DNA from: a virus
UHGV virus genome: UHGV-0098635
Length of the DNA: 39,409 nt
Strand: one strand, 5' to 3'
A program made the translations under genes and the position numbers. Positions 17,179 to 38,722 of the stretch are shown piece after piece. The first letter of the stretch is position 1, and every line of letters begins with the position of its first letter. The notes beneath the pieces were generated by a model. The model had not been told where the DNA came from and did no database searches. It saw nothing but the letters and a program-made list of their open reading frames with translations.

Positions 17179-17186
17179 GAGAGGAA

Positions 17187-18668: not shown

Positions 18669-18669
18669 G

Positions 18670-19014: not shown

Positions 19015-19032
19015 GCCTCGCGAATCCGACAA

Positions 19033-19052
19033 GGGGCTTCGGCCCCTTTATT
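19033..19052 (+). terminator. rho-independent terminator within the late operon
   Basis: Stem GGGGC / GCCCC with a TTCG loop, followed by TTTATT. Confidence 0.5.
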
Positions 19053-19064
19053 GCAGGAGTGTAT

Positions 19065-19993: not shown

Positions 19994-22446
19994 TGGCTAT
20001 CAGTTGGATCCAGCCCAGCTTTGCCGGTGGTGAGATTGGACCGTCGTTGTACGGTCGTATCGACATGGCGAAGTACCAGGTGGCATTGCGCAAGTGCGAT
20101 AACTTTATCGTGCGGCAGTATGGCGGCGTTGAGAATCGACCTGGTACGCGTTTTGTCGGTGCCGCCAAATACCCAAATCGGAAATGCCGCCTGATCCCGT
20201 TCCAGTTCTCGACGGTTCAGACTTATGCTCTGGAGTTCGGACACCAGTACATGCGCGTTATCAAAGATGGTGCGTTGGTGCTGAACAGCAGCAATGTTAT
20301 TTATGAAATTGCCACGCCATATACTGAAGCCGATCTGTTCCGAATTAAATTCACGCAAAGCGCAGACGTGCTTACGCTGGTTCATCCGGCATACCCGCCG
20401 AAAGAGTTGCGCCGCTATGCGCATGACAACTGGCAACTGGTTGATGTGGTAACGAAGAACGGGCCATTTGAAGATATCAATATTGACGAGTCAGTGACGG
20501 TTTATGCCAGCGCCAGCACCGGGACAATTACGTTAACGGCAAGCGCCTCAATTTTTGGCGCGGAGCAGGTAGGCAAATTGTTCTATCTGGAACAGCCTGC
20601 AGTGGATTCTGTGCCGGTATGGGAAACCAGTAAGAGTACGTCGATTGGCGATATTCGCCGTGCAGACAGTAACTACTATCGCGCCGTTACAGCAGGCAAA
20701 ACAGGCACTTTGCGCCCTTCGCATACAGAAGGCACATCATGGGATGGCTGGGGCGGATCCGGTGATGATGATACCGGCATTGAGTGGGAGTATCTGCACA
20801 GTGGTTTTGGCATTGCCCGTATCTCTGCTGCAAATGGAACTACTGCAACTGCCGAGGTGATTTCCTATATCCCTTCGCAGGTAGTTGGCGAGGATAATGC
20901 CAGCTATAAATGGGCTAAATATGCCTGGAACAGTATTAACGGTTATCCTGGCACTGTTGTTTATTATCAACAACGCCTTTACTTCGCCGCATCGACTGCG
21001 TTCCCTCAGACTATCTGGGCCAGCCGTACCGGGGATTATAAGGATTTTGGCAAAAGCAATCCTACGCAGGATGACGACAGAATTATCTACACCTATGCCG
21101 GGCGTCAGGTTAATGAGATCCGCCACCTGATTGATGTCGGTTCGCTGGTGGCACTGACTTCCGGAGGTGAGTACGTCATCACCGGCGACCAGAACAAAGT
21201 GTTAACCCCATCATCATTTGCATTCAGCTCTCAGGGATCAAATGGCTCGAGCAATGTCCCACCAATTGCCGTGGCGAATATTGCTCTGTTCGTCCAGGAG
21301 AAAGGCAGTGTTGTCCGTGATCTGGCCTACTCATTCGATGTTGACGGCTATCAGGGGAACGACCTGACCATCCTTGCCAATCATCTTTTTCAGAAGCACA
21401 GCATTGTTGACTGGTGCTTCTCTATTGTCCCTTACTCCAGCGCCTTCTGCATTCGTGATGACGGTAAATTACTGGTGATGACCTATCTGCGTGATCAACA
21501 GGTTTTTGCATGGGCACCACAGTCCAGTACCGGAAAATATGAAAGCACATGCAGTATCAGCGAAGGCAATGAAGATGCGGTGTATTTCGTCGTTAACCGA
21601 ACCGTTAACGGGCAAACAGTGAGATACATCGAGCGACTGTCCAGCCGTTTATTTACCAGCGATGAAGATGCTTTCTTTGTTGATTCTGGCCTTAGCTATG
21701 ATGGAAGAAATACGTCTGACAGAACGATGACCATCACTGGTGGTTCTGGTGAATGGGATTACCGCGCGGAATATACAATCAGTGTTTCTGGTGGTGCGTA
21801 CTTCACCAGTAGTGATGTCGGTGCGCAACTACAGTTCCCTTATACCGGCGATGAAGTGTCAAAAGAATTACGTTGCGACATTATTTCTGTAACCAGCAAT
21901 ACCGCAGTAGTGGTTCGTGCTAACAGGAACGTCCCGCCATCCCTCAGGAATGTGGCTACCACAAACTGGCAGATGGCGCGCCGGACATTTGGCGGCTTGT
22001 CTCATCTTGAAGGCCAGACCGTAAACATCCTCTCTGATGCGAACGTGGAACCACAAAAAGTGGTTTCCGGAGGTGCCGTCACGCTGGAATCACCGGGGGC
22101 TGTTGTGCACATCGGCCTGCCAATAACTGCTGAATTCGAAACACTGGATATCAACATTAACGGACAGGAAACGCTGCTGGACAAAAAACAGGTGATCCCG
22201 TCCGTTACTCTGGTTGTGAATGCCAGTCGCGGCATCTGGGCGACTACGCCCGGCGGTAAATGGTACGAATATCCACAGCGTGAATTCGAGTTCTACGATG
22301 ATCCTGTTGATGACGCTACCGGAAAAGTAGAAGTGAAACTGGACAGTAACTGGGGCAAAAACGGACGTGTAAAAATCCGTCAGCTTGACCCGTTGCCGCT
22401 GTCTGTTCTTGCCGTTATTCCTCGCCTTACTGTTGGGGGATTCTGA
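19993..22446 (+). CDS. tail nozzle, T7 gp12-like (tail tubular protein B)
   Basis: 817-aa ORF in the gp12 position; call rests on size and synteny. Confidence 0.6.
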   Translation: MAISWIQPSFAGGEIGPSLYGRIDMAKYQVALRKCDNFIVRQYGGVENRPGTRFVGAAKYPNRKCRLIPFQFSTVQTYALEFGHQYMRVIKDGALVLNSSNVIYEIATPYTEADLFRIKFTQSADVLTLVHPAYPPKELRRYAHDNWQLVDVVTKNGPFEDINIDESVTVYASASTGTITLTASASIFGAEQVGKLFYLEQPAVDSVPVWETSKSTSIGDIRRADSNYYRAVTAGKTGTLRPSHTEGTSWDGWGGSGDDDTGIEWEYLHSGFGIARISAANGTTATAEVISYIPSQVVGEDNASYKWAKYAWNSINGYPGTVVYYQQRLYFAASTAFPQTIWASRTGDYKDFGKSNPTQDDDRIIYTYAGRQVNEIRHLIDVGSLVALTSGGEYVITGDQNKVLTPSSFAFSSQGSNGSSNVPPIAVANIALFVQEKGSVVRDLAYSFDVDGYQGNDLTILANHLFQKHSIVDWCFSIVPYSSAFCIRDDGKLLVMTYLRDQQVFAWAPQSSTGKYESTCSISEGNEDAVYFVVNRTVNGQTVRYIERLSSRLFTSDEDAFFVDSGLSYDGRNTSDRTMTITGGSGEWDYRAEYTISVSGGAYFTSSDVGAQLQFPYTGDEVSKELRCDIISVTSNTAVVVRANRNVPPSLRNVATTNWQMARRTFGGLSHLEGQTVNILSDANVEPQKVVSGGAVTLESPGAVVHIGLPITAEFETLDININGQETLLDKKQVIPSVTLVVNASRGIWATTPGGKWYEYPQREFEFYDDPVDDATGKVEVKLDSNWGKNGRVKIRQLDPLPLSVLAVIPRLTVGGF

Positions 22447-22910
22447 TGATCGACGTTCAAATTATTCCCGCTACCGAAGAGCATCTTCAGATGATTTTGC
22501 CGGATGTTCGTCAGGCTGATATTGACGAACTGTATGCGGTATCGCTGATGACTACCGAAGATGCGCTGCGTGTTGGTCTGCGTACTGCGACTATGGCCTG
22601 GTCAGGATTTGCGAACGGAGAACTGGTAACCATGTTTGGCGTATCTCCGGCGTCAATGATCGGTGGCAATGGTACGCCCTGGCTGGTCGGAACCAGCCGT
22701 ATCGAAAAATATCAGAAGACATTTCTTCGCCACTGCCGCCCTGTATTGCAGCAGATGCTGGCAGTTTATCCGCGCCTGGAAAACTATGTCGACGAGCGAA
22801 ACCATGTTGCCAAAGCATGGCTGCACTGGCTTGGATTCAGGCTTGAAGAAGCCGCGCCTTATGGTGCTCTTGGTCTTAATTTCCACAGATTTCACATGGA
22901 GAGAAAATAA
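22446..22910 (+). CDS. small internal virion protein (gp13-like position)
   Basis: 154-aa ORF coupled to gp12-like and gp14-like genes. Confidence 0.5.
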   Translation: MIDVQIIPATEEHLQMILPDVRQADIDELYAVSLMTTEDALRVGLRTATMAWSGFANGELVTMFGVSPASMIGGNGTPWLVGTSRIEKYQKTFLRHCRPVLQQMLAVYPRLENYVDERNHVAKAWLHWLGFRLEEAAPYGALGLNFHRFHMERK

Positions 22911-23455
22911 TGTGCGATCCGGTTATTGCTGGTGGCGCAATGCTCGCCATGAGTGGCATTCAGGCATACACCCAGTACCAACAGGGAAAGTATGCCTCGA
23001 AGGTTGCAGAAGCGAACGCAGATATAGCCACAGCTCAGGCAAATGATGCAATAAACAGGGGTAACGCTGAAGCTGAGCAACGGCGCAGAGAGACCCGACA
23101 GCGGCTTGGTACACAGGCGGCGACAATGGGGGCTACCGGCGCTGATTTATCTACCGGTAACGCGCTGGATATATTTGGTGACACTGCTCAGTTTGGCGCT
23201 CTTGATTCGCTGACGACGGTGAATAACGCGCAACGCGAGGCTTACGGTTATCAGGTTCAGGCTGCCAACTATAAAGCAGAAGCCAGTTCAGCCCGTAAAC
23301 AGGGGAATGTGGGAGCAGCAACAACATTGCTCACTGCGCCTCTGAAGGCATACGGTGCGTACCAGATGTTTGGTGGGACGTGGAGTCCGTTTACTCAAAG
23401 CACCCCTGCGCCAATCGGGGCAGCAGCAGGAACCAGATTACCCGGAGGATTATAA
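22910..23455 (+). CDS. internal virion protein B, T7 gp14-like
   Basis: The N-terminus MCDPVIAGGAMLAMSGIQAYTQYQQGKY parallels the T7 gp14 N-terminus MCWAAAIPIAISGAQAISGQNAQAKM (recalled); similar size. Confidence 0.65.
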   Translation: MCDPVIAGGAMLAMSGIQAYTQYQQGKYASKVAEANADIATAQANDAINRGNAEAEQRRRETRQRLGTQAATMGATGADLSTGNALDIFGDTAQFGALDSLTTVNNAQREAYGYQVQAANYKAEASSARKQGNVGAATTLLTAPLKAYGAYQMFGGTWSPFTQSTPAPIGAAAGTRLPGGL

Positions 23456-25968
23456 TGCCAGTCGTACCAACAGTATCCGGACGCCAGGTTGAGAGCCGTG
23501 GAGTTCAGTCAGCAGGCTTGCAGACGTTTTCTCAGCCAGGTATTGGTGATGCTTTTGTTCGGGCAGGGACAGAGGCAATTGATGTTTTGGGGCAGGCAAA
23601 ACAGCGTGCCAATATCGCTCTGGCTCAGGAGGCATCTCTTAACCTCAGTCAGATAAGCAGTGATCTGCTGAATAACCCTGAAACAGGTTTGCTTAACCTG
23701 AAAGGGAAAAATGCTATTGGAAAAGGCCATGAGTATACGCAGCAGTTTGATGCTCAGGTCGAACAACTGGCTATGTCGCTGCCGGATGAACAGGCTCGTA
23801 ATGCTTTCATGCAGCAGGCGCAGCAGCAGCGCATTCAGTTCACTACGCAGGCCGGGCGACACGAGATAGGGCAAATTAATGCCTACGAAGAAGGCCAGTT
23901 TCAGGCGACACTGCTGAACAATGGTAAAAATGCCGCAGCATTGTATGGCGACAACGCCGCATACGTATTGGCTAACAAACAAACTTTCCAGCAAATTGAG
24001 GAGTACGGTGTTGCACATGGCTGGAGCAACGAGCAAATCCAGGCCAAGAAAATCGAGTTTAAAGAGAAGGTTGCTGATGCTGCATTGTCCCAGTGGTCGG
24101 CAAACAATGCGACCGCATTCATCCAAAGTAATGGCGAGTTAAGTGATACTGCTGCTGGAGCTCGCCGTGCTGTAGCAGATAGTGACTCTTCCGAGCGTGC
24201 CCGTGGCATACGCAACAATAACCCAGGAAATCTCGAATACAGCAAAACTAATCCGTGGGTAGGCCAGACCGGTGATGATGGTCGATTTGCTAAATTCGAA
24301 ACACCTGAACACGGGATTCGTGCATTAGGGCGGAACCTGATGTCGTATCAGAGGCAGGGTATTGATACCGTCAGCGAGATAATTAATCGCTGGGCACCGC
24401 CTGCTGATAAAAATGACACTATGTCGTATATCAAAGCAGTGTGCGAACAACTTGGCGTTTCTGCTGATGAGCCTCTCGATGCATCTAATCCTGATACCCT
24501 GAAGGCGCTTTGTGCAGCCATTATCCATCATGAGAACGGTAGCCAGCCATACAGTGATCAGCAGTTAACTGCTGGTGTCAGTGCAGCACTTGGTTTATCA
24601 ACAATTCCAACCAACACCAAACGCTATACCGGTAATGCAGCATTCGATGCGGCATCTCCTGAGGCTCAGGCAAGTTTTATGTGGCAGGCGGATCAACTGC
24701 GTCGGCAGCAGCAGGCTGAATATAAAACGATGATTGACAGCCAGGTTCGCGATGCGACGGCTGCGTATATGCGTGGCGTTGAATTTCCTAACCCACCTGG
24801 TGAGGCTGATTTTATTGCAGCTTATGGAGTCAGAGAAGGAAACCTGCGATATACCGAGTTTAAGAATACGCAGATCGCCGGACAGTATATAGGCTCTTTC
24901 CGCAACATGCCGACAAGCAGCATTACAGCATATGTTGAGCAATTACGCCCGGATACTGGTGAGACAGGGGAGGGTTATGCGGCTCGCGCAGCTCTTTATG
25001 ACAACGTTGTTTCGGCTGCAAATCAGGTGATAAAGCAGCGGCAGTCTGATCCTGTGCAGTTCTCTCTTGCCTCCGGACAGGCAAAGCCTATCGACATGAG
25101 CAATAAGGATAACTTTGGACAGAGCGTTGCCTTGCGTGCCGCTCAGGTCAGTGACCTTGCTAAGTCATATGGCACTCCACTGACGTTCTTTTCCAAAGAC
25201 GAGGCCAATCAGATCGGTGTTTTTTTTCGTGATGCTCCAGTTTCCCAACAGGCAGCATATCTCGATACCATCAGGCAGAGCACTGGTGGTGGGCAGGTGT
25301 ATATGTCAGCACTACAGCAGATCAGTGCCAACGCTCCATCTGCTGCCGTTGCCGGGATACTGATGGACAAGCCTGGTGGTATTTTGGCAGAAAAAAACTG
25401 GTTTAATCCGGATGTTTCCGTGTCTCCTGAAACCGCTGCGCAGACAATTCTTACTGGCGCGGCGGCTCGTAAAGGTACTGATGATGCGAAAGGTATTCCG
25501 ATGCCTAAAGATGCTGATCTTCGCCTTGAGTTTTCTGACATGGTGAAGGATGCATTTGCTGGTGATGCTCAGGGGGCATCAATGGCATACGAGATCGCAA
25601 AGGACTATTACGCTGGTGTGATGGCGAAAAAAGGCGTGATATCAGGCGAAATTGACAATGATATCTGGAAACAGGCTGTTAACGTAGCTACAGGTGGCGT
25701 GCATGACTATAACGGAATGGGGAATGTTCTTTTGCCGTGGGGAATGTCTGCAGAGCAATTCGATAAGCAGGTTAATCAGGCTTGGAATGAACAAGTTGTC
25801 GGCACAGGGATAAAAACACCGCCTGGTCAGTATGGTTTGCAAAGTTACGGCGATAGTCAGTACCTGGTAAAACTTGGGGCTGGATATCTGCTGAAGGATG
25901 ATGGTTCTCCTGTTGTTCTTGATCTGACACAGAAGCGTCAGAGATTCTCCGGAGATATTCCGCAATGA
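23456..25968 (+). CDS. internal virion / ejection protein (gp15-like position)
   Basis: About 837 aa from the ATG at 23456 (GGAGG RBS); the track ORF from 23380 overlaps the upstream gene in another frame. Contains an RNNNPGNLEY...NRWAPP segment. Confidence 0.6.
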
Positions 25969-27767
25969 GTTACTTTGGCCTTAATCCAGTAAACCAGAAT
26001 CAGCAGCTTGACGAAGCAGCATCAAATCCAGCTGGCTTTAACAGCGATGTTGGTTTTTTCGACAATGCTGTAGGAGCGGCATTGTCTGGTTTGTACTCCG
26101 GGCTGGTGGCAAAGCCAGATCAGTTGCTCTGGGCAGGGATGGATAAAATCGTATCCCCGATTGCTCAGTTTATTAACGAAAACACCTCGCTCAATGATAC
26201 TTCAGTTTCATACATTGCCGAGCAGAGAAAACTAGCAGAGCAGCAGGTTAAGCGGCTGACGCCTGATGCCGCGACAACCGGAACCGCCGGGCAGGTTCTT
26301 TATGGGTTGTTCGATATGGGCGGGCAGGCTGTTGTCGGTACAACGCTCGGTGGTCCTGTCGGAGGTGCAGCGGCGGTAACTTCGCTACAGGGTTTTTCTG
26401 AGTTTGAACGGCTGACAGCACAGGGTGTTGATTTCAGGACGGCGCAGGAAGCGGGATTAGTGCAGGGCATTACTGCTGGTGCCGGAACACTGATCCCTAT
26501 GAGCCTCGGGTTACGTGCTGGTGGTGCGCTGGCGGAAGGTGTGGCGGCTCAGCTTGCGCGGACGGGTGAGAGTTCAGTGCGACGCGCCGCAGCAACAGCA
26601 GTACGTGCAACGCCAGATATTGCCTATGCCGCAGGTACAAATATTGCGTTCGGTATGGCACAGCGTGGGCTTACTGCAAAAACACTTCGTGATGGTGGCT
26701 ATAGCGAAATGGCTAACCAGTATGATGTGTTGGATCGACAGGCAATTGCTATTGATGCTGTTCTTGGGGTGGCGTTTGGTGGTGTCGGCAGATTTATTAA
26801 CTCTCGCGGCGAGTCTACAAGCGCACCAAATTTTTCACCAGTTGATATTGATGCTGCACTGGCGGCGAATGCCGCTCATCATGCTGAAATTGATATTGCT
26901 CCCGGCGTTCCGATCAACGTGCTTTCGCGTAATTCGCACATTCAGGCTCTGCGAAAAGCCATGTCTGATGTTAGCCAGGGGAGACCTGTAGACGTTGCCA
27001 GCATTGTTGAGTCTGCATCTTTCAGTGAAATTCCTGGGCGCAAGAGTCTGCTGTCTCAGGCAGTTAATGAGGCTCTGTCATCTGTAGATGATGGAGTAAC
27101 GGCGCGCGCTATAGAAAATCGGTTGCTTGAAGAACAGGCCGCGCAGCTTTTGTCGCGTGGCGATAGAAAGGTTTACCAGTCTGAAATCGCTAATAGCCAA
27201 CGAATTATTGAAAATCTCACTGAACAGCGCGCACAAATTCTTGCAGAAGAGCCAACCGGTAGCGGTAAGGCTTTATCTCGTGCTCGATCAGATAAACAGG
27301 CCAGACTTCGCGATATTGACCAACGAATCCGGCAGGCACAAGAACGCCTGGAATTTTCTCGTAACGCGTTGGCGCCGCACGAGCCTGGAGGTCAGTTTTT
27401 TGAAGCTCGAGCAGAACTGGCACGACGACAGCAGGCAGAAAGTGAACTTAATGCTCAGGCTGTTTCATTCTATAAAACAGCAGAGGTCAGGACGCCAGAA
27501 GAAGTAGCTCCTTTTGAGCCCGGTAAGATATTGCAACAGACAGAACAAAAAATGATGGCAGATCCGGCAGGAGATATTGATCTGCGTATAGCTGAAGACT
27601 CGCTGCTTGAATCACCTGACATGATAATCACCGTGCTGGATGATGATGGTAATCCACAATCGCGCAGTGCGCGTGAAGTACTGGATGAAGCGAACAGGGA
27701 AAGTGAGCAGGCAATACAGGATTCCAGCCTGTTTGATGTTGCTGTGGCGTGTTTCTTGAGAGGTTAA
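25965..27767 (+). CDS. internal virion / ejection protein
   Basis: 600-aa ORF coupled by ATGA overlap; Ala/Gly-rich N-terminus and a charged helical C-terminus. Confidence 0.6.
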   Translation: MSYFGLNPVNQNQQLDEAASNPAGFNSDVGFFDNAVGAALSGLYSGLVAKPDQLLWAGMDKIVSPIAQFINENTSLNDTSVSYIAEQRKLAEQQVKRLTPDAATTGTAGQVLYGLFDMGGQAVVGTTLGGPVGGAAAVTSLQGFSEFERLTAQGVDFRTAQEAGLVQGITAGAGTLIPMSLGLRAGGALAEGVAAQLARTGESSVRRAAATAVRATPDIAYAAGTNIAFGMAQRGLTAKTLRDGGYSEMANQYDVLDRQAIAIDAVLGVAFGGVGRFINSRGESTSAPNFSPVDIDAALAANAAHHAEIDIAPGVPINVLSRNSHIQALRKAMSDVSQGRPVDVASIVESASFSEIPGRKSLLSQAVNEALSSVDDGVTARAIENRLLEEQAAQLLSRGDRKVYQSEIANSQRIIENLTEQRAQILAEEPTGSGKALSRARSDKQARLRDIDQRIRQAQERLEFSRNALAPHEPGGQFFEARAELARRQQAESELNAQAVSFYKTAEVRTPEEVAPFEPGKILQQTEQKMMADPAGDIDLRIAEDSLLESPDMIITVLDDDGNPQSRSAREVLDEANRESEQAIQDSSLFDVAVACFLRG

Positions 27768-27772
27768 ATTAA

Positions 27773-30247
27773 ATGAGACAGGAATGTATACAAGCGGTCC
27801 AGCAGGCGGCGCAGCGCACGTTAACGGCGCGAGAAATACAGAACATTGAAGACCGCATTTATCGAAATATGCGCTCCATTGCTCGTGATGACCCGATGTC
27901 GTGGCGACAACTTTCCGAATCAGAGCGGCTGTATCGTGCAGCACAATTGGCATCTGAAGAATTACAGCGAGAAGCGGCATTAAAGAAACGTCGTGTGGCC
28001 CTCACTATAGCCGCACGTCAGAGATTGGATAAATTTATCAATAGCTATCAAGGGGCTGATGGGAAACTTGGCGCTCTTAACCGTACTATTGCTTTTAATG
28101 CAGACGGTAAATCGAATTTCCTCTCTGTTGAATCCAGAACAAAAGCCACCCGTGATTATGCATTGAGTCAATTACAGGAGGCATTCGAAGCAGTTGATCC
28201 TCGCTTTTTTGGTCTGTTTGAAGATGAAGCGGGCGTACGTGACCTGGTATATGAAATGCGGGGGCAAAATACTGGCAATGCTAAAGCAAGAAAAGGTGCT
28301 AAGGCGTGGAGAGAAGTGACAGAGCTACTGCGCCGCCGGTTTAATGATGCTGGTGGGGACATTGGCTATCTCGAAAACTGGGGGATCCCTCAACATCATT
28401 CTATGGAAAAGGTTGGGGCGGTATCAAAAGATAAATGGGTTAGCGATGTTATAGGTAAGCTGGATCGCAAATATTATACCCGAGCCGATGGACAACTGAT
28501 GAACGATGCCGAGTTGTCTGCATTTCTTGGAGAGGCTTATAACACGATCGCTACTGGTGGGCTGAATAAGCTTACTGATACCGGAATGCGAATTTCCGGC
28601 GCACGTGCTAACCGTGGTAATGCATCACGACAGATACATTTCAAAGATGCAGATTCCTATCTGCAATATCAGCAACTTTATGGCGATCGCTCTCTATGGG
28701 AAATCATGGTCGGTCACCTGGAAGGGATCAGTAAAGATATTGCTTTGGTGGAAACATATGGTCCAAACCCCGATCATGTTTTCCGTTCCCTTCTTGATCA
28801 GGTGAAGGCAGAAACGGCAACAGCTAACCCGAGTAAAACCGGTAGCGTCGAGCGGCTGGCGAACAAAACAGAGAACCTGTACAACTTTATTTCCGGAAAG
28901 ACACAGCCTGTTGCGAATCCTCACATCGCGCGCTGGTCTGACAATATCAGAAACTGGCTGGTTGCCAGCAGGCTCGGATCCGCGTTGCTGTCATCGTTCT
29001 CTGATCTTGGAACCATGTATCTGTCTGCGAAGGTTACCAACCTTCCAATGAACCAGTTATTCCGCAACCAGCTTGAAGCTATGGACCCAACGAACCGTAC
29101 AGAACTTGCGCGGGCGCGCCGCGCTGGTCTGGCGATGGAATCTCTACTTGGCAGCGTTAACCGCTGGGCGATGGATAATATGGGGCCGTCAGTGTCTCGT
29201 TGGGCGGCAACGGCGGTAATGCGTGCCAGTGGGCTTACAGCATGGTCAGATGCGCACAAGCGCGCTTATGGCGTAACCATGATGGGAAGCCTGGGAGAAG
29301 TAGTGTCACGGACACCAGACCTTCGTAGCCTCGATGACTCTGATTTTCGTATCCTGAAAAGCAAAGGGATTACTGACACAGACTGGAGCGTATGGAAGCT
29401 GGCGCAACAGGAGGACTGGGGGAACGGTAATAATACGATGCTGACACCGGAAAGCATTATGCGTATCCCTGATTCAGCAGTTAAACATCTTGGTGAGCCT
29501 GAACGTGTGAAATTTGAGGCAATGCGTAAACTGCTCGGTGCCGTAACTGAAGAAGTTGATATGGCTGTTATTACACCGGGCGCACGTGAACAGATGTTCG
29601 TAGGGTCTGGTCTTCAGCGTGGAACATGGAAAGGTGAATTAACGAGAAGTGTTTTCCTGTTTAAATCGTTCCCTATCTCGGTAGTTATGCGTCACTGGCA
29701 TAGAGCTATGGGGATGCCGTCTGCTGGTGGGCGTGCGGCATATATAGCAACGTTTTTAGCAAGCACAACCATGCTTGGTGCTCTTTCCATGCAGATTACT
29801 GATCTTATTAATGGGAGAAATCCAAAAGAAATGACCGGTGACAACATGGTTAAATTCTGGATAAATGCATTTTTAAAAGGTGGTGGGGCAGGGTTGTATG
29901 GTGATTTTCTTTTCTCTGACCACACCAGGTACGGGAGCGGCGCACTAGCGTCGATGCTTGGCCCGGTAGCTGGTCTGGTTGATGACGTAGTGAAGATTGC
30001 TCAGGGCATACCGTTAAATGCTGTGGAAGGGAAGAATGAGCAGACTGGTGGTGATCTGGTTAAGCTTGGGAAAGGTTTGATGCCTGGTGCGAATCTCTGG
30101 TACTTGAAGGCGGCTCTCGATCACATGATCTTTAATCAGATGCAGGAGTATTTTTCACCAGGCTATTTGCGTAAAATGGAGCAACGTTCGAAGAAAGAGT
30201 TTAACCAGACATACTGGTGGCGACCTCAGGATGTCACTCCGCAATAA
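27773..30247 (+). CDS. internal virion protein, T7 gp16 C-terminal-region-like
   Basis: The segment LFKSFPISVVMRHWHRAMGM...AFLKGGGAGLYGDFLF parallels the T7 gp16 segment QFKSFTIKSLNSKFLRTFYDG...MGLAGGFYAM (recalled). Confidence 0.65.
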   Translation: MRQECIQAVQQAAQRTLTAREIQNIEDRIYRNMRSIARDDPMSWRQLSESERLYRAAQLASEELQREAALKKRRVALTIAARQRLDKFINSYQGADGKLGALNRTIAFNADGKSNFLSVESRTKATRDYALSQLQEAFEAVDPRFFGLFEDEAGVRDLVYEMRGQNTGNAKARKGAKAWREVTELLRRRFNDAGGDIGYLENWGIPQHHSMEKVGAVSKDKWVSDVIGKLDRKYYTRADGQLMNDAELSAFLGEAYNTIATGGLNKLTDTGMRISGARANRGNASRQIHFKDADSYLQYQQLYGDRSLWEIMVGHLEGISKDIALVETYGPNPDHVFRSLLDQVKAETATANPSKTGSVERLANKTENLYNFISGKTQPVANPHIARWSDNIRNWLVASRLGSALLSSFSDLGTMYLSAKVTNLPMNQLFRNQLEAMDPTNRTELARARRAGLAMESLLGSVNRWAMDNMGPSVSRWAATAVMRASGLTAWSDAHKRAYGVTMMGSLGEVVSRTPDLRSLDDSDFRILKSKGITDTDWSVWKLAQQEDWGNGNNTMLTPESIMRIPDSAVKHLGEPERVKFEAMRKLLGAVTEEVDMAVITPGAREQMFVGSGLQRGTWKGELTRSVFLFKSFPISVVMRHWHRAMGMPSAGGRAAYIATFLASTTMLGALSMQITDLINGRNPKEMTGDNMVKFWINAFLKGGGAGLYGDFLFSDHTRYGSGALASMLGPVAGLVDDVVKIAQGIPLNAVEGKNEQTGGDLVKLGKGLMPGANLWYLKAALDHMIFNQMQEYFSPGYLRKMEQRSKKEFNQTYWWRPQDVTPQ

Positions 30248-30256
30248 GGAACAACA

Positions 30257-30670
30257 ATGAAGGAATTATTGCTGTTATCGGTATTTTTGATATCCGCTTG
30301 CTCGACATCCTATGATGTTTATGACGGTGTTGATAAGGCATATTGCGACAAAGTTAAAATGGATTTTTCTCTTGCCAAGACGGCGAAGGATAGTTGTATT
30401 GATCACTACGTCAAGACTTATACCAAGCCAGCCTCATCGGCATCTGATATTGCTGAAGGTGCTGTGTTTGAGTGTAACAAGGTGATATCCATCGCAGCGA
30501 GTTCTTCATACGATGCTGCTGTATGTGCAATGGCTGAAAGAAACGGCATGTCAGTGCAAAAAATTAATAGCATGATAAGCAGTAATGACGAAGCCAAAAT
30601 AAGAACTGATATCAGCTCGGTGAAAAAAGATGCCATGAACAGAGTTGTAAAATATCAGTCATCTTTATAA
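30257..30670 (+). CDS. lipoprotein, accessory gene
   Basis: 137-aa ORF with a signal peptide and lipobox (LISAC); AT-rich; last gene of the late operon before a terminator. Confidence 0.65.
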   Translation: MKELLLLSVFLISACSTSYDVYDGVDKAYCDKVKMDFSLAKTAKDSCIDHYVKTYTKPASSASDIAEGAVFECNKVISIAASSSYDAAVCAMAERNGMSVQKINSMISSNDEAKIRTDISSVKKDAMNRVVKYQSSL

Positions 30671-30673
30671 GTC

Positions 30674-30685
30674 GTGACATGTCAC
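30674..30685. repeat. perfect 12-bp palindrome GTGACATGTCAC, copy 2
   Basis: Lies 4 nt after the lipoprotein stop and abuts the terminator stem. Confidence 0.7.
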
Positions 30686-30710
30686 AGGCCGCTTTCGCGG
30701 CCTTGTTTTT
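30686..30710 (+). terminator. rho-independent terminator ending the late operon
   Basis: Stem AGGCCGC / GCGGCCT, loop TTTC, followed by TGTTTTT. Confidence 0.6.
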
Positions 30711-30870
30711 AACGAATGCCACCGCCACCCGGGCGGGAATCCGCAGAACGCCCACCGCAGCGGGAGCCGTCAGCGGCAGTATCGCTGTCGTGCTGACAAC
30801 GACCGGCAAAGGCCTGAGTTGAAGCTACCAGAGACAACAAAACGAACAGTGCAGCAAATGCTTTTTTCAT
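30709..30870 (-). CDS. small secreted peptide precursor
   Basis: Start taken at 30870 (MKKAF). Signal peptide MKKAFAALFVLLSLVASTQAFA followed by a roughly 31-aa Gly/Arg-rich peptide with two Cys. Confidence 0.4.
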   Translation of the reverse strand: MKKAFAALFVLLSLVASTQAFAGRCQHDSDTAADGSRCGGRSADSRPGGGGIR

Positions 30871-30951
30871 TGTGAAATTTCCATCTATAATCCACCTCAA
30901 TGCGGCGTCAATGAGTGTAGCACTGACTTTTGTTTCGTCCATAAAAAACTA

Positions 30952-31464
30952 CTATGCAGGCTTTTTGGATTTGTACGAATAATCCCACGGATAAACATTT
31001 CTACTAAGCGGAGCTGTATTCGTTCGTTCATGAAATAATTTTGTGAAATTCAATACGGAATCCATCCAAACTTTTGCGTTAGCTTTGGTGTGTGCGGGCG
31101 GGTCCCAATAAGCTAGTAAGGCTGCATCTCTTATTTCATTGACTGCATATATGAGATATGCGTTACTGGTTGGTTTTGGCCTGTAATTTCCTTGTTCATC
31201 AATCAATCCATATGACCACTCATCCCAACACTGTTCAGTACATGAGTATGAATATGATGCATATTCACCAATATTGACATGAACCTTTCTGAGATGGAAA
31301 CCTAATACTTCGTCTGGTCTTTCAAAAAGAGTATCTTTTCCCAGATCAGGATGATGACCATGACGCCAGTGTTGTTTAAAAGCATCTTTTAGCGAAATCA
31401 GAAAGTCATCAGTTTTAAACTCACCAGTAGGTATAACCTTCCCGCTATACTCACTCAAAAACAT
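30952..31464 (-). CDS. candidate toxin (weak YafO-like resemblance) of a two-gene accessory module
   Basis: 170-aa ORF overlapping the upstream gene by 14 nt; the segment GKDTLFERPDEVLGFHLRKVHVNI loosely resembles the YafO core FGRDALYD...KFERVAHIHL (recalled). Confidence 0.5.
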   Translation of the reverse strand: MFLSEYSGKVIPTGEFKTDDFLISLKDAFKQHWRHGHHPDLGKDTLFERPDEVLGFHLRKVHVNIGEYASYSYSCTEQCWDEWSYGLIDEQGNYRPKPTSNAYLIYAVNEIRDAALLAYWDPPAHTKANAKVWMDSVLNFTKLFHERTNTAPLSRNVYPWDYSYKSKKPA

Positions 31465-31777
31465 CGAATTCCTCTTCCTTCATATGCGTTTCTAATGAGT
31501 TAAGCTGGCGGAAAGATATCTCTTTTGATTCTGCAGATGAGAGCTTTTTTATCCGCTTTATATTCTTTGTGATAGGAATAGTCATTGTATGCACATCAGC
31601 GGATGCTCTTGGCTTTGTGCTGATAAAAATATGGCGCAATGCCGCATTTTCACTATTGAACGAGCCAATAGCTGATTTACGTGCTACAACCTTACCAGTA
31701 AAAATACGACTCTTGCTACGCTTTGCATGAGTTCCGCTTCTTACCGGACCTCTCATCACGAATCCAAGTTTTGTCAT
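31451..31777 (-). CDS. basic small protein, candidate antitoxin/partner
   Basis: 108-aa basic ORF, first gene of the operon, with GGAG RBS and an operator palindrome about 45 nt upstream. Confidence 0.5.
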   Translation of the reverse strand: MTKLGFVMRGPVRSGTHAKRSKSRIFTGKVVARKSAIGSFNSENAALRHIFISTKPRASADVHTMTIPITKNIKRIKKLSSAESKEISFRQLNSLETHMKEEEFDVFE

Positions 31778-31906: not shown

Positions 31907-32563
31907 TCAGAAGAACCCTGCCTTGTCGTTGATGTACTCCGCGTGGGTCTGGATATCACGCAGGCATTTGCTCACACCGACGATGTAGCAGAACATGGTG
32001 GTCAGCTCCGCCGCCGCGCCCGATACGTCGTGCCCGTCTTCCTGTAACTGGTTCAGCAGATTCATCAGCAGTGAGTTCTCCGTCAGGCCGAGAACACCAG
32101 ACGGAGAATGAATCAGGCTGCGGTAGCCGGGCTTCAGTGGGGCGCTGTATTCTTTTTTGTCTTCCAGCTTGATCGCCTCCATAATGGCGGGCATGAAGCC
32201 TGACAAGACCTTCTCCACTTTTGTTTCTTGTTGTCTTAAACGTTTCTCGCATTCAATGAAGTAGCGTCGCACCTGGCGACCTTTTTCGTTACGCTCGACC
32301 ATCGCCAGCTCTTTGGCTGTATCAAGGGTGAGGTGGTACTCTTTGCGGTTGTGGCCGCCTCTACCAGATGTTTGCTTTCCCAAATTGGAAAGCAAAATAT
32401 AGTCTTGATTTTCAATGAATTCGTATTCTGATATGCGATTTGTAATCCATGCTGCAAACACCTTTTTAACACCTAAAAAAGCGTGCAGATCGCGGGCATT
32501 ACAAAGTAGGGCTGTTTCGTTAGATATAGTGCCGTTGAATACGGGGATGAGTTGAGCGTTCAT
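31907..32563 (-). CDS. phage antirepressor, AntA-type N-terminal domain
   Basis: The N-terminus [32 protein letters not shown] matches the AntA/Ant antirepressor pattern; the C-terminal roughly 80 aa are paralogous to the ORF at 32881-33138. Confidence 0.75.
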
Positions 32564-32723
32564 GATGGCGTCTCCACTTAGCGAATTACATCACCACCGC
32601 TGAGACCAATCAGATGGTGGTGAACTGAACGGAGTTGGTCTTACCGGCCTAAGTGGTACCGGCGTCCTTTCGGACCCCCATTCAGCCCACCATAATTCTG
32701 GCATGACTGTGCTATACGCATAA

Positions 32724-32801
32724 AAAAACCACGTCTGGCGTGGTATGCGCCACTTAGTAATCCGGGAGACCAATCCCGGCACTGGATTTTGCCAGTGCCC
32801 G
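32724..32801 (-). ncRNA. structured non-coding segment with terminator; candidate small RNA or attenuator
   Basis: Minus-strand series of stem-loops: GGCACTGG/CCAGTGCC (plus 32780-32801), CCGGGA/TCCCGG, then CCACG-CCAGA-CGTGG followed by T7. The track ORF here (32591-32914) is judged spurious. Confidence 0.3.
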
Positions 32802-32834
32802 ATTACTATGGCACAAGAGGAGTGCGATGTAAAT

Positions 32835-33333: not shown

Positions 33334-35349
33334 ATGACGGTCTCAACCGAAGTTGACCACAACGAATACACAGGTAACGGCGTTACGACATCATTTCCGT
33401 ATACCTTCCGTATTTTCAAAAAATCCGACTTGGTTGTTCAGGTGTCTGACCTGAACGGGAACGTAACAGAATTGGTTCTGGATACCGGTTATACGGTAAC
33501 TGGGGCGGGCACTTATAGTGGCGGTTCTGTTGTTCTTCCGTCGCCGCTTGCTGCTGGATGGCGAATTACGATAGATCGTGTGCTTGATGTAGTGCAGGAG
33601 ACAGACCTTCGCAATCAGGGAAAGTTTTTCCCCGAAGTGCATGAAGATGCCTTTGACTACCTGACGATGCTGATCCAGCAATGTTTTGGGTGGTTCAGAC
33701 GTGCATTGATGAAACCATCTTTGCTTGCAAAATATTACGATGCAAAGCAAAACAGAATTTCTAACCTTGCAGATCCATCACTTGAGCAGGACGCTGTAAA
33801 TAATCGCTCAATGCGTAATTATGTCGATGCTGCAATCGCCGGGGTTGTTGGTGGTTTTGGTTGGTTTATTCAGTATGGTTCAGGCGCGGTATATAGAACG
33901 TTTCAGGATAAGATGCGGGATACTGTCAGTGTTCTTGACTTTGGCGCTAAAGGTGATGGAGTCACAAATGATACAGATGCTTTCATTGCCGCGGCATCTG
34001 CTTCGCCACAAGGTGTTTATGTTCCTGATGGCACGTATTTATTGCCGGAAGATATTAATGGAAGATTTTATGGCCCAGGAAAAATAATTAAAGAGACAGG
34101 AGCGGAACGAATTCCGTTTACCAATGTAGCTCAGTCTCATAGCAACCTTATTTTAGGTTATGATGCCGCAAAAAATTACACTGACTCTGGTAAAGGTAAT
34201 CAATTGGTTTTGCTTGGACCAAGTTCTGGTCGCAACATAACTAGCGGCACTAACACAATCGTGGTTGGTGTGGGTGGTTTGTCAGGAGATACTCTAGAAG
34301 ATGATCTTACAGATAAGTCGCCATTTTCTGGAACAGAGATTATCAGTATAGGTATTAATGCTTTGAAGAAAGCCACCACTGGAAATAACATGATTGGTAT
34401 TGGCAGGGATGCGCTAAACGAGTGTAAGGATGGTAGGTTCAATGTTGCAGTTGGTATGTCAGCTTTGCAGCAACTCCATTCTGGAGAAGCTAATGTTGCA
34501 ATAGGACGCTCTGCAGGAATGCGTACTGGCATCTACACAGACCCTCAAGGTGTACGTCTTGGGTATAATAAATGTAATGGAAATACCCTTATTGGTAATG
34601 CAGCTGGTAGGGAGTTAAAGCAAGGTGATCATAACACAGCTATAGGTAATGGAGCATTGCGAGGAGTATCATCAACAGAGAACCCATACACTGGGACTCT
34701 CACAGGTAATTTTAATACAGCAATTGGTGTTGATGCTCTCAATTCCCTATCCTCAGGTGACCTGAATGTTATGATAGGTGCAAGAGCAGGAAGAAAATTA
34801 CCAACTGGAAATGGTAATATTTTTATAGGTCCAGATGCTGGTACCGGAATATCAGAAGATACCTCCAATAAATTCATTGTAAATAATCACAAAGGATTGC
34901 CTTTTTTAGAAGGTGTTATGGGAGGCGCACAAGCGGAAGATAACTATTTGCGTATAGATGGTAGTGTTGCCCCCCAGATGGATAATCAAAGAACTTGTGG
35001 TCAATCTAGTCGTAGATGGCAAACTGTCTTTGCAACTAATGGTGTAATACAAACATCTGACGGTAGATGTAAAGATGTGTATGAGATATCTACGGCAGAG
35101 TATAGTGCAGGGCTAGAATTAGCCATTAGCATGATAAAGTTTAAATGGACAGATGCAGAATCTGATAAGTATCACTTCGGATGTATGGCTCAAGAAGTAA
35201 TGCTGATTATGGAGAAATATAATCTTAACCCTACAGACTATTCTCTGGTTACTTATGATAAAGAATCGGATATGTATGGTGTAAATTACGCTGACTTATC
35301 TTGTTTCTGTATTGCAGCTATGTCTAAACATTTATTACGAAGTGCGTAA
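33334..35349 (+). CDS. tailspike/tail fibre: T7 gp17-like N-terminal adaptor, receptor-binding region, C-terminal S74-type self-cleaving chaperone
   Basis: The N-terminus (YTGNGVTTSFPYTFRIFKKSDLVV) parallels T7 gp17 (recalled). The C-terminus DGRCKDVYEI...MIKFKWTD...YSLVTYD fits the intramolecular chaperone pattern. The middle is AT-rich. Confidence 0.75.
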   Translation: MTVSTEVDHNEYTGNGVTTSFPYTFRIFKKSDLVVQVSDLNGNVTELVLDTGYTVTGAGTYSGGSVVLPSPLAAGWRITIDRVLDVVQETDLRNQGKFFPEVHEDAFDYLTMLIQQCFGWFRRALMKPSLLAKYYDAKQNRISNLADPSLEQDAVNNRSMRNYVDAAIAGVVGGFGWFIQYGSGAVYRTFQDKMRDTVSVLDFGAKGDGVTNDTDAFIAAASASPQGVYVPDGTYLLPEDINGRFYGPGKIIKETGAERIPFTNVAQSHSNLILGYDAAKNYTDSGKGNQLVLLGPSSGRNITSGTNTIVVGVGGLSGDTLEDDLTDKSPFSGTEIISIGINALKKATTGNNMIGIGRDALNECKDGRFNVAVGMSALQQLHSGEANVAIGRSAGMRTGIYTDPQGVRLGYNKCNGNTLIGNAAGRELKQGDHNTAIGNGALRGVSSTENPYTGTLTGNFNTAIGVDALNSLSSGDLNVMIGARAGRKLPTGNGNIFIGPDAGTGISEDTSNKFIVNNHKGLPFLEGVMGGAQAEDNYLRIDGSVAPQMDNQRTCGQSSRRWQTVFATNGVIQTSDGRCKDVYEISTAEYSAGLELAISMIKFKWTDAESDKYHFGCMAQEVMLIMEKYNLNPTDYSLVTYDKESDMYGVNYADLSCFCIAAMSKHLLRSA

Positions 35350-35622: not shown

Positions 35623-36036
35623 GTGGTTTTTATGTCAGTTCAGATAACCAGTGAGTCTTTAAATCAGTGGCTTAGCATGAGTTCTCTGGTGGCGGTTATA
35701 GCAGGAGCACCTCCTGAGGTTGCTTTGGGGTCTTTGGCTGGAGCGGTTATTTTTGTTACCTCTGCAGTAGAGTATCCCATTCGTCGTCGCGTACTCTTGT
35801 CGATGCTTAGCTTTCTCTGCGGACTTCTTTTCTACAAACCAGCAGCATCAATTCTTATCGGCATAGCCAGCCTGATCCCTACAATTACGCAGGACTCGTT
35901 TGAGAAAGGGATTGTTTTCTCTGCTGGTGCATTCGTGTCAGCAATCGTCGCAGTTCGAATTGGAATCTGGCTCTATCACCGTTCCGATAATCCACGCGAG
36001 TTAATTCCGGGGAGAAAAGACGATGGTAACGCATGA
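35623..36036 (+). CDS. holin-like membrane protein
   Basis: Multiple hydrophobic segments; possible dual start GTG 35623 / ATG 35632 (M-V-F-M); sits directly upstream of the endolysin. Confidence 0.5.
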   Translation: MVFMSVQITSESLNQWLSMSSLVAVIAGAPPEVALGSLAGAVIFVTSAVEYPIRRRVLLSMLSFLCGLLFYKPAASILIGIASLIPTITQDSFEKGIVFSAGAFVSAIVAVRIGIWLYHRSDNPRELIPGRKDDGNA

Positions 36037-36331
36037 GTTTTTTTTGCTTATCACCAATGCAGTTATTTGCACTGGCATAGCAATTCGCGTTGTCACATTC
36101 CGGCGTAACGGCTCTCAACACCGAAGGTGGGGAGGATGGCTTGCTTATTTCCTGATTGTTGCTGCGGCCAGTATTCCTGTTCGTGTCGCCTATGCAATCT
36201 GGTTACGTACGCCAATGGCTGTGGATTTATCTGAGGTCATTATCAACGCTGTCATGCTAGCTGCGGTTATTAAAACTCGCGGTAACGTTGTTCAGATTTT
36301 CAAAATAACGAGGTCTAAACATGGAGATTAA
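36023..36331 (+). CDS. second lysis-cassette membrane protein (holin/antiholin-like)
   Basis: 102-aa ORF with three hydrophobic segments, overlapping both neighbours. Confidence 0.45.
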
Positions 36332-36950
36332 ACAATTCCAACGAGCTGCTGGTATTAGCGAGGCGCTGGCCGCACGCTGGTTCTCGCATATAACTTCTGC
36401 GATGAAAGAGTTTGATATCAGCAAACCAGAAGATCAGGCAATGTTTATTGCTCAGGTCGGGCATGAGTCTGGAGGCTTCACCCGGTTGCAGGAAAATTTC
36501 AACTACAGCGTCAGCGGACTGGCGAGCTTTGTCAGGACTGGACGCCTCACCCAGGGACAGGCTAATGCACTGGGGCGCCGTGCTGGTGAACCACCATTGC
36601 CACTTGAGCGCCAGCGCGCGATCGCAAATCTGGTTTACAGCAAACGCATGGGTAACAATGCTCCCGGCGATGGCTGGAATTACCGTGGGCGCGGGCTTAT
36701 CCAGATTACCGGTTTGAATAACTATCGTGACTGCGGAAACGGTCTGAAAGTTGACCTGCTGGAGAATCCTGAACTGCTGGCGCAGGACGAATACGCGGCT
36801 CGTAGCGCGGCGTGGTTCTTTGCCAGCAAAGGATGCATGAAGTATACCGGTGATATTGCACGTGTAACTCTGATTATCAATGGTGGCCGGAACGGCATCG
36901 ACGACCGGCGCGCGCGGTACGTCACTGCCAGTAAGGTGCTGGCTATATGA
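36321..36950 (+). CDS. endolysin, glycoside hydrolase family 19 (chitinase class I-like)
   Basis: 209-aa ORF with [11 protein letters not shown] and GRGLIQITG motifs. Confidence 0.8.
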
Positions 36951-37429
36951 TCTGGGCATTCGTAAAAGCATATTGGAAACAACTGATTATCGTGGTGATG
37001 CTTGCTGCTCTGTTCATCGTCGGAGTGGTTGTCTGGAATATACACGGCAGTCGCCAGTACGATGCCGGGTATGCGCAGGCGGAAGAAGATCGCAAAGACG
37101 AAGAAGACAAAGTTCGTCAGTACTACGAACAGGAGAAAGTGACCAATGAACGTGAAGCGCAGCAGAGAATCGACCAGGCGCGCAATGATGCTCTTGATGC
37201 TGCCGCTCGCGCTGGCAGGTTGCAGCAACAACTCTTTGCCATCCGTGAGCAGCTCAGGCAGTATAACGCCATTGTCGGCGCTGGGACGTCAGCCGCAGAC
37301 ACCGGAGTTTTGCTTGCCGACGTGCTCAGCAAATCTCTCGAGAGAAACAGACAACTGGCAGAGTATGCTGACCGGGCAGCCGAAGCCGGAAGAGTCTGCG
37401 AAAAACAGTATGACACCCTGACAAGATAG
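36947..37429 (+). CDS. i-spanin (Rz-like)
   Basis: N-terminal transmembrane segment then a charged coiled-coil; follows the endolysin with ATGA overlap. Confidence 0.7.
37146..37421 (+). CDS. o-spanin (Rz1-like), embedded in the +1 frame of Rz
   Basis: Signal peptide with lipobox LALAGC and a Pro/Ser-rich mature part; the likely real start is the ATG at 37185. Confidence 0.6.
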   Translation: MNVKRSRESTRRAMMLLMLPLALAGCSNNSLPSVSSSGSITPLSALGRQPQTPEFCLPTCSANLSRETDNWQSMLTGQPKPEESAKNSMTP

Positions 37430-37648: not shown

Positions 37649-38188
37649 TTAATTAAACCAGCTGTCCGATTTGTTCTCTTCTGCTTTGCCCACGCTTTTC
37701 ATCAGATCGCGACCGCCCTCAGTCATATTCCTGTTTGCGTCAGCTTCAGATTGCACCACATCGGTTTGCGCAGCTTTGTGCTTCAGTTCCTGATCGATAA
37801 ATTCGTTTTCGCGCTTAACGCGGGCTTCTTCTTTCGCCAGCGCCAGTTTTTGCTTCTGAATCTCTAAGCTACGTAGCTCATCTTCATAACTTTGATCGCG
37901 TTTTTTGTCCGCAGTGGCTTCGGCGTCCAGTTTATCCTGACGAGCTTTCTTATTCGCTGCTGCCGTTGCCGCTCTTTTATTAGCCGCGGCCTGGGCGTTT
38001 GCGCGACGTTGCTTCTCTTGCTGGATTTCCCTGTTGCGCTCCGCGACCCATTCGTCATGCTGCCTTTGCTCTTCATTTTTACCTTGCTGTTCCGCTTCTG
38101 CGACAGCCGAGAGTTGATCCTGCAATGATGAGGCGATAGCCGGATAGCTTAAGGAGGCTAAGATGGCGCAAAGAAAAACTTTCTTCAT
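37649..38188 (-). CDS. secreted coiled-coil protein (periplasmic; host gene or lysogenic-conversion gene)
   Basis: Signal peptide MKKVFLCAILASLSYPAIA then a Lys/Ala/Gln/Glu-rich helical region. Confidence 0.55.
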   Translation of the reverse strand: MKKVFLCAILASLSYPAIASSLQDQLSAVAEAEQQGKNEEQRQHDEWVAERNREIQQEKQRRANAQAAANKRAATAAANKKARQDKLDAEATADKKRDQSYEDELRSLEIQKQKLALAKEEARVKRENEFIDQELKHKAAQTDVVQSEADANRNMTEGGRDLMKSVGKAEENKSDSWFN

Positions 38189-38203: not shown

Positions 38204-38722
38204 TTAGCTCTTTTCAGGACATTTGGTATTTGGCTGAATACGCGTTTCGTTATACGTCGTGGTAATAACAACGGCTAAACCTGTCGTAAACTGGCACTCT
38301 TTACCCACCTGGGTGGAGGTATACACTTTGGTGCCTTCCTTATATGTTAAAGAAACACCTTCCACTAAGGTTTTATCATTCACCATAGAACCCGCTGCTG
38401 CGCCAACAGCTCCGCCGCCAACTGCACCTGCTGTCGTTCCGGAATTGCTGCCAGACCCGACGTTGTGGCCGATAACACCGCCAGCGACAGCGCCAATAAG
38501 CGCGCCGAAGGCTTGTGCGTTCCGTTTATTTTGGGCGTTGTCTACGGCAACTTTTGCGGGAAGAATGGAAATAATATTAACGGTTTTAGTTTCTTGTTTG
38601 GTATTCAGTTGATCGGTTTGATAAACATCGGCGGCATGATCATCAGCATTTGACTGGCATCCTGCCAGAGTAAATGACGCTAACATTGCCACAGGCAGAA
38701 GACATTTTTTTAATTTCATCAC
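38204..38722 (-). CDS. glycine-zipper outer-membrane lipoprotein
   Basis: Lipobox LAGC after a signal peptide; GALIGAVAGGVIGHNVGSG glycine zipper. Confidence 0.6.
   Translation of the reverse strand: MMKLKKCLLPVAMLASFTLAGCQSNADDHAADVYQTDQLNTKQETKTVNIISILPAKVAVDNAQNKRNAQAFGALIGAVAGGVIGHNVGSGSNSGTTAGAVGGGAVGAAAGSMVNDKTLVEGVSLTYKEGTKVYTSTQVGKECQFTTGLAVVITTTYNETRIQPNTKCPEKS

Follow-up and report, generated by a model that had tools for sequence, protein, structure and literature searches.

We found that a short lipoprotein gene, placed last in the structural gene string of a phage that by its sequence belongs with the epsilon15/phiV10 group, occupies a replaceable slot which is a hot-spot for accessory envelope-protein cassettes. 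The gene is real and under strong purifying selection; it is an unnamed envelope moron, borne by phages and other mobile elements, whose product is probably an exclusion factor. More specifically, and by analogy with known systems, we propose with moderate confidence that it may be an outer-membrane-anchored, periplasm-facing exclusion factor, carried by an epsilon15/phiV10-like podophage as a moron-type cassette. The window analyzed here is the whole stretch of 39,409 nucleotides of the virus genome UHGV-0098635; the features discussed below are listed in table 1.

Table 1. Positions of the lipoprotein gene, its surroundings, the known occupants of its slot and two plasmid-borne relatives (window coordinates unless another record is named)
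Feature	Position	Strand	Remarks
Lipoprotein gene, 137 aa	30257..30670	+	ATG start, stop included; WP_000661385.1 "hypothetical protein"; phrog_8691
Shine-Dalgarno AAGGAA	30246..30251	+	Overlaps the upstream TAA, 5 nt before the ATG
Signal peptide (residues 1-14) and lipobox L-I-S-A-C	30257..30301	+	Cys15 is the predicted lipidated residue
Four invariant cysteines, C30, C47, C73, C90	30344..30526	+	On predicted antiparallel helices H24-55 and H74-96
Cassette slot	30248..30673	+	Left edge after the stop ...CCGCAATAA; right edge before GTGACATGTCAC
12-bp perfect palindrome GTGACATGTCAC	30674..30685	.	Invariant right border of the slot
Intrinsic terminator AGGCCGC-TTTC-GCGGCCT plus T run	30686..30711	+	Common to all slot alleles; annotated terminator in phiV10
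T7 gp14-family internal virion protein	22910..23455	+	PF24072, E 2.5e-7; same ejection-protein string
Upstream gene, 824 aa	27773..30247	+	Homologue of phiV10 p20 and epsilon15 gp17; phrog_684
Tailspike gene	33334-35349		2.7 kb from the lipoprotein gene, beyond five minus-strand genes
Rz	36947-37429		Lysis cassette
Rz1, embedded in Rz	37146-37421		Lysis cassette
57-aa two-helix ORF plus 98-aa three-helix membrane protein (phrog_3075)	slot		212 genomes
46-aa two-hydrophobic-helix protein (phiV10 p21, phrog_7892)	slot		54 genomes
126-aa lipoprotein, MRKVFLIFGFMLLVGC/QSAAQ (phrog_3716)	slot		34 genomes; unrelated to the 137-aa lipoprotein
137-aa lipoprotein (phrog_8691)	slot		22 genomes
epsilon15 gp18, 64 aa, two hydrophobic stretches	slot in epsilon15
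P0025-type family member	L057 (NZ_CP135992.1, 2,428 bp) 263-691
P0025-type family member	L058 (NZ_CP066834.1) 365-793

Megablast of positions 19993-31500 recovered phiV10, phiv142-3, vB_EcoP_ZX5 and the O157 typing phages at 96-97% identity, with epsilon15 and its relatives as more distant matches; on this sequence basis the window represents a temperate epsilon15/phiV10-like podophage (genus Uetakevirus) or prophage. The plus-strand genes at 14508-30670 form a tight string in which the spacing between neighbours ranges from -76 to +51 nt. It begins with the portal gene (PF12236), continues with the head and tail genes and those of the internal virion proteins, and ends with the lipoprotein gene. 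Besides the T7 gp14-family protein, the ejection part of the string encodes proteins of 862 aa, 600 aa (phrog_1145) and 824 aa (phrog_684), and relatives of the 862-aa protein have a lytic transglycosylase domain. The epsilon15 counterpart of the 824-aa protein, gp17, was identified by profile-profile matching as a homologue of T7 gp16, internal virion protein D (Hardies et al., PMC4819975). Beyond the terminator the order is a small secreted peptide gene, a YafO-like toxin pair, the antirepressor gene ant with C4 antisense and isrK RNAs before it, and the tailspike gene; the lysis set, made up of holins, endolysin, Rz and an embedded Rz1, lies at 35623-37429.

The lipoprotein gene starts 9 nt past the stop of the last ejection-protein gene. 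The earlier note had described it as an AT-rich gene with a clean signal peptide and lipobox, lying between a gp16-like gene and a terminator, and each part of this description holds: the reading frame is exact, its N-terminus agrees with the lipoprotein rule given below, its GC content of 39.4% is low beside the 48.5% of the window (by ~2 SD, at the 5th percentile among segments of 414 bp), the upstream gene is the epsilon15 gp17 homologue, and a stem-loop of 7 pairs, 6 of them G-C, stands at 30686-30703 and is followed by TTGTTTTT. Comparison with two diverged IMG/VR alleles gave dN/dS values of 0.05-0.06, with 18 and 31 synonymous changes against 5 and 8 non-synonymous ones. No sigma-70 consensus promoter was found on the plus strand at 29800-30256, that is, within 450 nt upstream of the gene, and the sole promoter-like site on that strand near its start lies inside the gene (30287-30316). 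Since the gene lacks a consensus promoter upstream and abuts the late operon, its expression from the repressed prophage has no support.

The N-terminus of the protein, MKELLLLSVFLISAC/STSY, agrees with PROSITE PS51257, here applied as a cysteine at position 15-35 and a K or R within the first seven residues: it has K2, an uncharged h-region (LLLLSVF) and L-I-S-A-C15. The six frames of the window contain 1,043 start-to-stop candidates with a length of 50 aa or more, of which only Rz1 (37146) and a lipoprotein gene starting at 38722 on the minus strand likewise combine agreement with this rule and a true hydrophobic leader. All 10 family members agree with the rule, and none of the 10 has Asp at +2. 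The residue at +2 governs the sorting of lipoproteins by the Lol system, and because no family member has Asp there (Ser16 in the window protein), Lol-dependent transfer to the outer membrane is predicted. The mature protein has 123 aa, 13.3 kDa and a pI of 6.75, and no transmembrane segment was found in it (highest 19-residue hydropathy 1.11).

The AlphaFold2 model, built on a seven-sequence alignment, has a mean pLDDT of 85, with ten-residue block averages of 88-96 from residue 21 on and a dip to 73 at residues 111-120. The predicted fold is all-helical, with helices at 24-55, 62-72 and 74-96 and three short C-terminal helices. The first of them begins eight residues after the cysteine predicted to be lipidated, and because of this short tether the helical domain is expected to stay close to its anchoring membrane. 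The four invariant cysteines keep their spacing (17 / 25-26 / 17) in every homologue. Their places on the two long antiparallel helices, together with the equality of 30 + 90 and 47 + 73, suggest that two disulfides, C30-C90 and C47-C73, would clamp these helices into a hairpin, as one would expect of a protein in the periplasm.

The protein matches phrog_8691 over its full length (residues 1-137 against 1-137 of the 137 profile positions, E 1.6e-91), but this is a family of unknown function, without annotation, and membership in it names the protein without explaining it. No named family was recovered from Pfam, PHROGs, NCBIfam or PADLOC; Pfam, NCBIfam and PADLOC returned noise only, and no PADLOC-DB 2.0 model matched at E ≤ 1. 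The Pfam matches to linker histone, Trans_coact, PDH_N and Spackle were all under the cut-offs and were rejected. The predicted structure had no fold match in BFVD or PDB, and the sequence profile search of PDB retrieved only designed helical proteins, at E ≥ 0.1. Based on the absence of a match to any solved or viral structure, we do not consider the lipoprotein a relative of Llp, Cor, SieA, Ltp, Spackle, Bor/TraT or the spanins. The gene was found in none of 50,697 phage records, which were searched both as DNA and as protein, and hence in no isolated phage of that collection; it is known only from prophages and IMG/VR contigs. Nothing relevant was found in the literature on WP_000661385.1, on a phiV10 lipoprotein or on superinfection in Uetakevirus.

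The suggestion in the earlier note that the gene was a later addition is borne out by the comparison of prophages that are otherwise 96-99% identical, among which the segment from the upstream stop to the palindrome and terminator is swapped. The flanks of the slot were found in ~560 of 5,426 complete Escherichia coli genomes, with the four alternative cassettes counted in table 1, and its boundaries are identical in 10 loci carrying the 4 different cassettes. The slot is 170-609 nt long, with a GC content of 38-44%. Strains with the 137-aa lipoprotein gene came from chicken, pig, calf, dog and human sources. By their sequences all the occupants are envelope proteins, none has a Pfam family and they share no homology with one another. 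Such a sharing of one slot by unrelated envelope proteins is the pattern expected of phage-phage competition genes. Moreover, every cassette opens with its own ribosome-binding site directly past the upstream stop, which argues that the slot cassettes are built to be read together with the late operon.

Some further features of the slot deserve mention. The palindrome GTGACATGTCAC occurs exactly twice in the window, at 10555-10566 and 30674-30685, each copy lying just 5' of an intrinsic terminator (10608-10625 and 30686-30703), and the two copies mark the head and tail of the rightward structural string; it could be a regulator-binding or a recombination site. In the 126-aa cassette (L017, 332-520) a small hydrophobic ORF before the main gene is split over two frames, representing either a frameshifted remnant or a sequencing error, and the equivalent 57-aa ORF of the 98-aa cassette, with a GTG start, is intact and without RefSeq annotation. 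A convergent small gene at 30709-30942 on the minus strand adjoins all slot alleles. It encodes a Sec-signal peptide, MKKAFAALFVLLSLVASTQAFA/G..., with a mature part of 30 residues that is rich in Gly, Arg and Asp and has two cysteines; it matches phrog_3117 and phrog_14503, and a 53-aa RefSeq version is named "transmembrane anchored protein" (WP_000708858). The lipoprotein was considered as an immunity partner of this peptide and rejected, the peptide gene standing beside all slot alleles with no specific linkage to this one.

The family to which the lipoprotein belongs is very small: a collection of 5.8 billion sequences contained 17-22 clusters of it, and when 1.84 billion representatives were searched exhaustively with a profile, seven matched. 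One match of the exhaustive search, a protein of 3,870 aa (P0023, E 3.5e-4), aligned only over a cysteine-containing stretch of 35 residues and was discarded as spurious. Near-identical copies were found in E. coli, Enterobacter and Citrobacter, and full-length homologues reach down to 26% identity. In Cedecea, the corresponding slot of an epsilon15-like prophage, with an upstream protein of only 24% identity, contains a copy that is 55% identical; a 44% identical copy follows a 27% identical C-terminal fragment of the upstream ejection protein; and in a phage of still greater divergence the slot is filled by a 26% identical copy, preceded by an additional 191-aa protein with a Sec signal. The same slot is used in four divergent lineages in which the upstream ejection protein is only 24-27% identical. 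Since divergent epsilon15-like phages carry homologues in the same slot, the association of the family with the end of the ejection operon is old or recurrent.

Other relatives were found outside phages. Two homologues from Providencia and Morganella (P0020 and P0024, ~27% identical) belong to integrative islands of the integrase-AlpA-DUF3987-YfjJ type, always between the conserved backbone and the variable cargo (L011-L013 and L054-L056, ~8001-8420). Among the cargo were genes for a Gabija-type helicase, for type I restriction with PDC-S11 and for type III restriction, as well as ThiF-ThiF-ABC genes and CP4-57-like antirestriction and RadC genes. Because the Morganellaceae homologue stands at the backbone border in every context seen, its closeness to defence cargo may reflect island architecture and not a shared function. 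Col3M plasmids of 2.4 kb in Providencia have just two annotated ORFs, one of which encodes a further homologue (P0025, 28% identical) that is also present on 4.0-kb plasmids of Proteus. Some metagenome contigs (L050/L051), apparently assembled as concatemers, have P0025 together with a Wzz-like (GNVR) or a pentapeptide-repeat (Qnr-like) gene. Given that three kinds of mobile element keep the gene, a minimal plasmid included, the family likely benefits the carrying cell directly, and its presence on defence-bearing islands and 2.4-kb Col3M plasmids argues that this benefit does not depend on virion assembly.

According to the mechanism that we propose, the lipoprotein would be exported by Sec and lipidated at Cys15, which would leave a helical domain of ~13 kDa, with two disulfides, on a tether of ~8 residues at its predicted outer-membrane site, where it would disturb an envelope-crossing step of incoming phages. 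It might do so by binding the periplasmic face of an outer-membrane component that the phage needs, as Llp and Rtp45 do, or by binding the outer-membrane end of the conduit made by the ejected internal proteins, a SieA-like logic transferred to the outer membrane; in the latter case the T7 gp14-like protein (22910-23455) would be a candidate target. Because the tether is short, the target is expected at the outer membrane, be it the host component or the end of the conduit. What speaks against exclusion is that the lipoprotein resembles no known exclusion protein in sequence or fold.

The benefit of such an activity would be clearest in lytic growth, because the gene is the last of the late operon and has no recognizable promoter of its own: the infected cell would be protected, and the progeny would be spared the loss of DNA on infected cells and lysis debris. 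A low level of expression in the lysogen, if there is any, would lead to prophage-mediated exclusion. An action in lytic growth, including the protection of progeny from debris, is better supported than this classical form. A bolder reading, which we regard as doubtful, would make the slot a dedicated, exchangeable entry-exclusion locus and the counterpart of sieA, with at least six unrelated envelope families; the lipoprotein would then be an inhibitor of conduit assembly at the outer-membrane end, with a new fold, and the islands and Col3M plasmids would have borrowed its family as a stand-alone anti-phage gene.

Envelope morons can also help the host in other ways, for instance by serum resistance or stress tolerance. 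The lipoprotein could accordingly be read as a host-fitness or lysogenic-conversion factor with no relation to phage entry, which, like lambda Bor, TraT and Iss, would act for instance in resistance to serum or complement, in adhesion, or in the tolerance of envelope stress or bacteriocins. The occurrence of the family on tiny Col3M plasmids and integrative islands besides phages agrees with a phage-independent benefit to the cell, and the AT-rich, accessory nature of the gene and the range of animal and human sources of its carriers point in the same direction. However, the protein matches no virulence-associated family, with no Pfam match to Bor (PF06291) or TraT at E ≤ 1; a gene of the late lytic operon without its own promoter has the wrong timing for a factor benefiting the lysogen; and the other slot cassettes encode tiny membrane peptides, which are improbable serum-resistance factors. 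On balance, we consider this explanation unlikely.

A role as helper of the lytic cycle, in which a late periplasmic protein would tune lysis and release through spanin, endolysin or peptidoglycan, or would chaperone envelope events, is quite improbable. It would fit the terminal place of the gene in the late operon, the overlap between its ribosome-binding site and the preceding stop, and a weak PHROG match to an Rz-like spanin (phrog_6073, E 0.13), but this match covers only residues 1-18, the signal peptide. An o-spanin of the Rz1 type was rejected on the same grounds, the gene being 6 kb from the lysis cassette where genuine Rz and Rz1 are present. With holins, endolysin, Rz and embedded Rz1 already encoded there, the phage has a complete lysis set, and therefore the lipoprotein is not needed for lysis. 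Moreover, the gene is missing from most relatives, phiV10 and epsilon15 included, and no lysis genes are found near the plasmid and island homologues.

A variant of exclusion itself, to which we give only a slight chance, would have the lipoprotein inhibit from the periplasm the cell-wall-cutting domain of incoming ejection proteins, guarding against lysis from without and blocking passage through the peptidoglycan. The model for such an activity is T4 Spackle, a small helical periplasmic protein, as the lipoprotein is predicted to be, and relatives of the 862-aa protein of the same operon have a lytic transglycosylase domain; the Pfam match to Spackle (PF25676, E 0.82) scored 10.7 bits against a cut-off of 27. 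Finally, the notion of a chance reading frame or a decaying remnant in an AT-rich spacer, for which only the absence of annotation speaks, has practically no probability left, being already refuted by the conservation data (dN/dS ~0.05, the phrog_8691 match at E 1.6e-91, and the lipobox and four invariant cysteines kept by homologues down to 26% identity), as well as by the confident AlphaFold2 model.

Several other loci of the window are worth noting. A second accessory lipoprotein (38204-38722, minus strand, 172 aa) has the leader ...ASFTLAGC/QSNA, a glycine-zipper 2TM domain and a weak match to TraT (E 2e-6, below cut-off); it adjoins the gene of a DUF5384 protein (37649-38188, minus strand), downstream of the lysis cassette, and is a candidate surface-exclusion or serum-resistance moron. 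A 296-aa ORF on the minus strand (12742-13632) interrupts the rightward string between a 491-aa ORF (11270-12745) and the portal gene; it had no Pfam match and may be another inserted moron. The YafO-family toxin-like gene (30952-31464, minus strand) reached only E 9e-4 in Pfam, below the cut-off, and has a RefSeq homologue named "YafO family toxin". Upstream, and overlapped by it, a gene of 108 aa (31451-31777, minus strand) is probably its partner, and the pair, with 39-40% GC, is variable among related prophages. Just upstream of the antirepressor gene (31907-32563, minus strand), Rfam matches to C4 antisense RNA (61 bits), isrK (68 bits) and the c4 a1/b1 target were found at 32613-32811 (minus strand). 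Judged by its sequence, this ensemble is an immI-like antirepressor control module, with a P22-like placement.

If exclusion holds true, the gene would represent the first entry-exclusion locus for the epsilon15/phiV10 group (Uetakevirus), whose members are common prophages of E. coli and Salmonella and among which phiV10 has been used for the detection of O157. The lipoprotein would add a new fold to the few exclusion lipoproteins, and at least four interchangeable cassettes in isogenic backgrounds would offer a natural set for studying how the delivery of podophage DNA is blocked. The carriage of the family by Col3M plasmids and defence islands would then make it a candidate for single-gene, envelope-level defence that current defence catalogues have missed. 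If exclusion is not borne out, the gene would be another uncharacterised prophage moron. The main interest of the finding lies in the slot as a clean natural experiment.

The earlier note had likened the protein to T5 Llp and phi80 Cor as lipoproteins found at this position in other phages, a likeness which our data do not uphold as to kinship and which is loose as to position: neither in sequence nor in fold does the protein resemble Llp, Rtp45 or Cor, and in its mature form, with 13.3 kDa, it is twice the size of Llp and Rtp45 (~6 kDa). The llp and cor genes adjoin those of receptor-binding proteins and do not follow ejection genes, and the T5 gene is expressed early, whereas the lipoprotein gene adjoins that of internal virion protein D. 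Furthermore, Llp, Rtp45 and Cor target FhuA or LptD, which are receptors of siphophages, while the window phage adsorbs by an O-antigen tailspike. Llp, Rtp45 and the Cor protein of phi80 and N15 are phage lipoproteins that are anchored on the inner leaflet of the outer membrane and exert their effect from the periplasm; they are said to protect infected cells, and progeny from debris (PMC9586334, PMC12685063). Of these, the proven exclusion lipoproteins Llp and Rtp45 are described as preventing non-productive adsorption to infected cells and to the fragments left after lysis (PMC12685063). The window protein is likewise a phage lipoprotein, its periplasm-facing site at the outer membrane being a prediction.

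Both HK97 gp15 and TP-J34 Ltp are expressed from the prophage. They resemble our case as accessory genes in or beside structural operons, with envelope products that block DNA entry (PMC10883804), and Ltp is also a lipoprotein (cited in PMC10883804). On the other hand, neither is homologous to the window lipoprotein, gp15 being an inner-membrane protein and Ltp belonging to a phage of a Gram-positive host and targeting the tape-measure protein.

By analogy of position, we regard sieA of P22 as a better counterpart than llp or cor and as the closest one. In P22 this gene lies between gene 16, the last of the ejection genes, and gene 9, which encodes the tailspike. Its product has the proven role of blocking DNA injection, by which the ejection-protein conduit delivers the DNA; only a third of P22-like phages carry the gene, and escape mutations map to the ejection proteins gp16 and gp20 (PMC10883804). 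SieA is a polytopic inner-membrane protein of 162-164 aa with 3-4 helices, the cytoplasmic motif FxRYPxEAxxFNK and its own promoter, whereas the window lipoprotein, predicted for the outer membrane, has no transmembrane segment, no such motif, no homology to SieA and no recognizable promoter. Nevertheless, both are envelope proteins found in a fraction of the related phages only, with several very divergent or replaceable types. Likewise, both genes lie between the last ejection-protein gene and the antirepressor region and tailspike, the P22 order of ejection genes 7-20-16, sieA, the immI/ant region and tailspike gene 9 being paralleled in the window.
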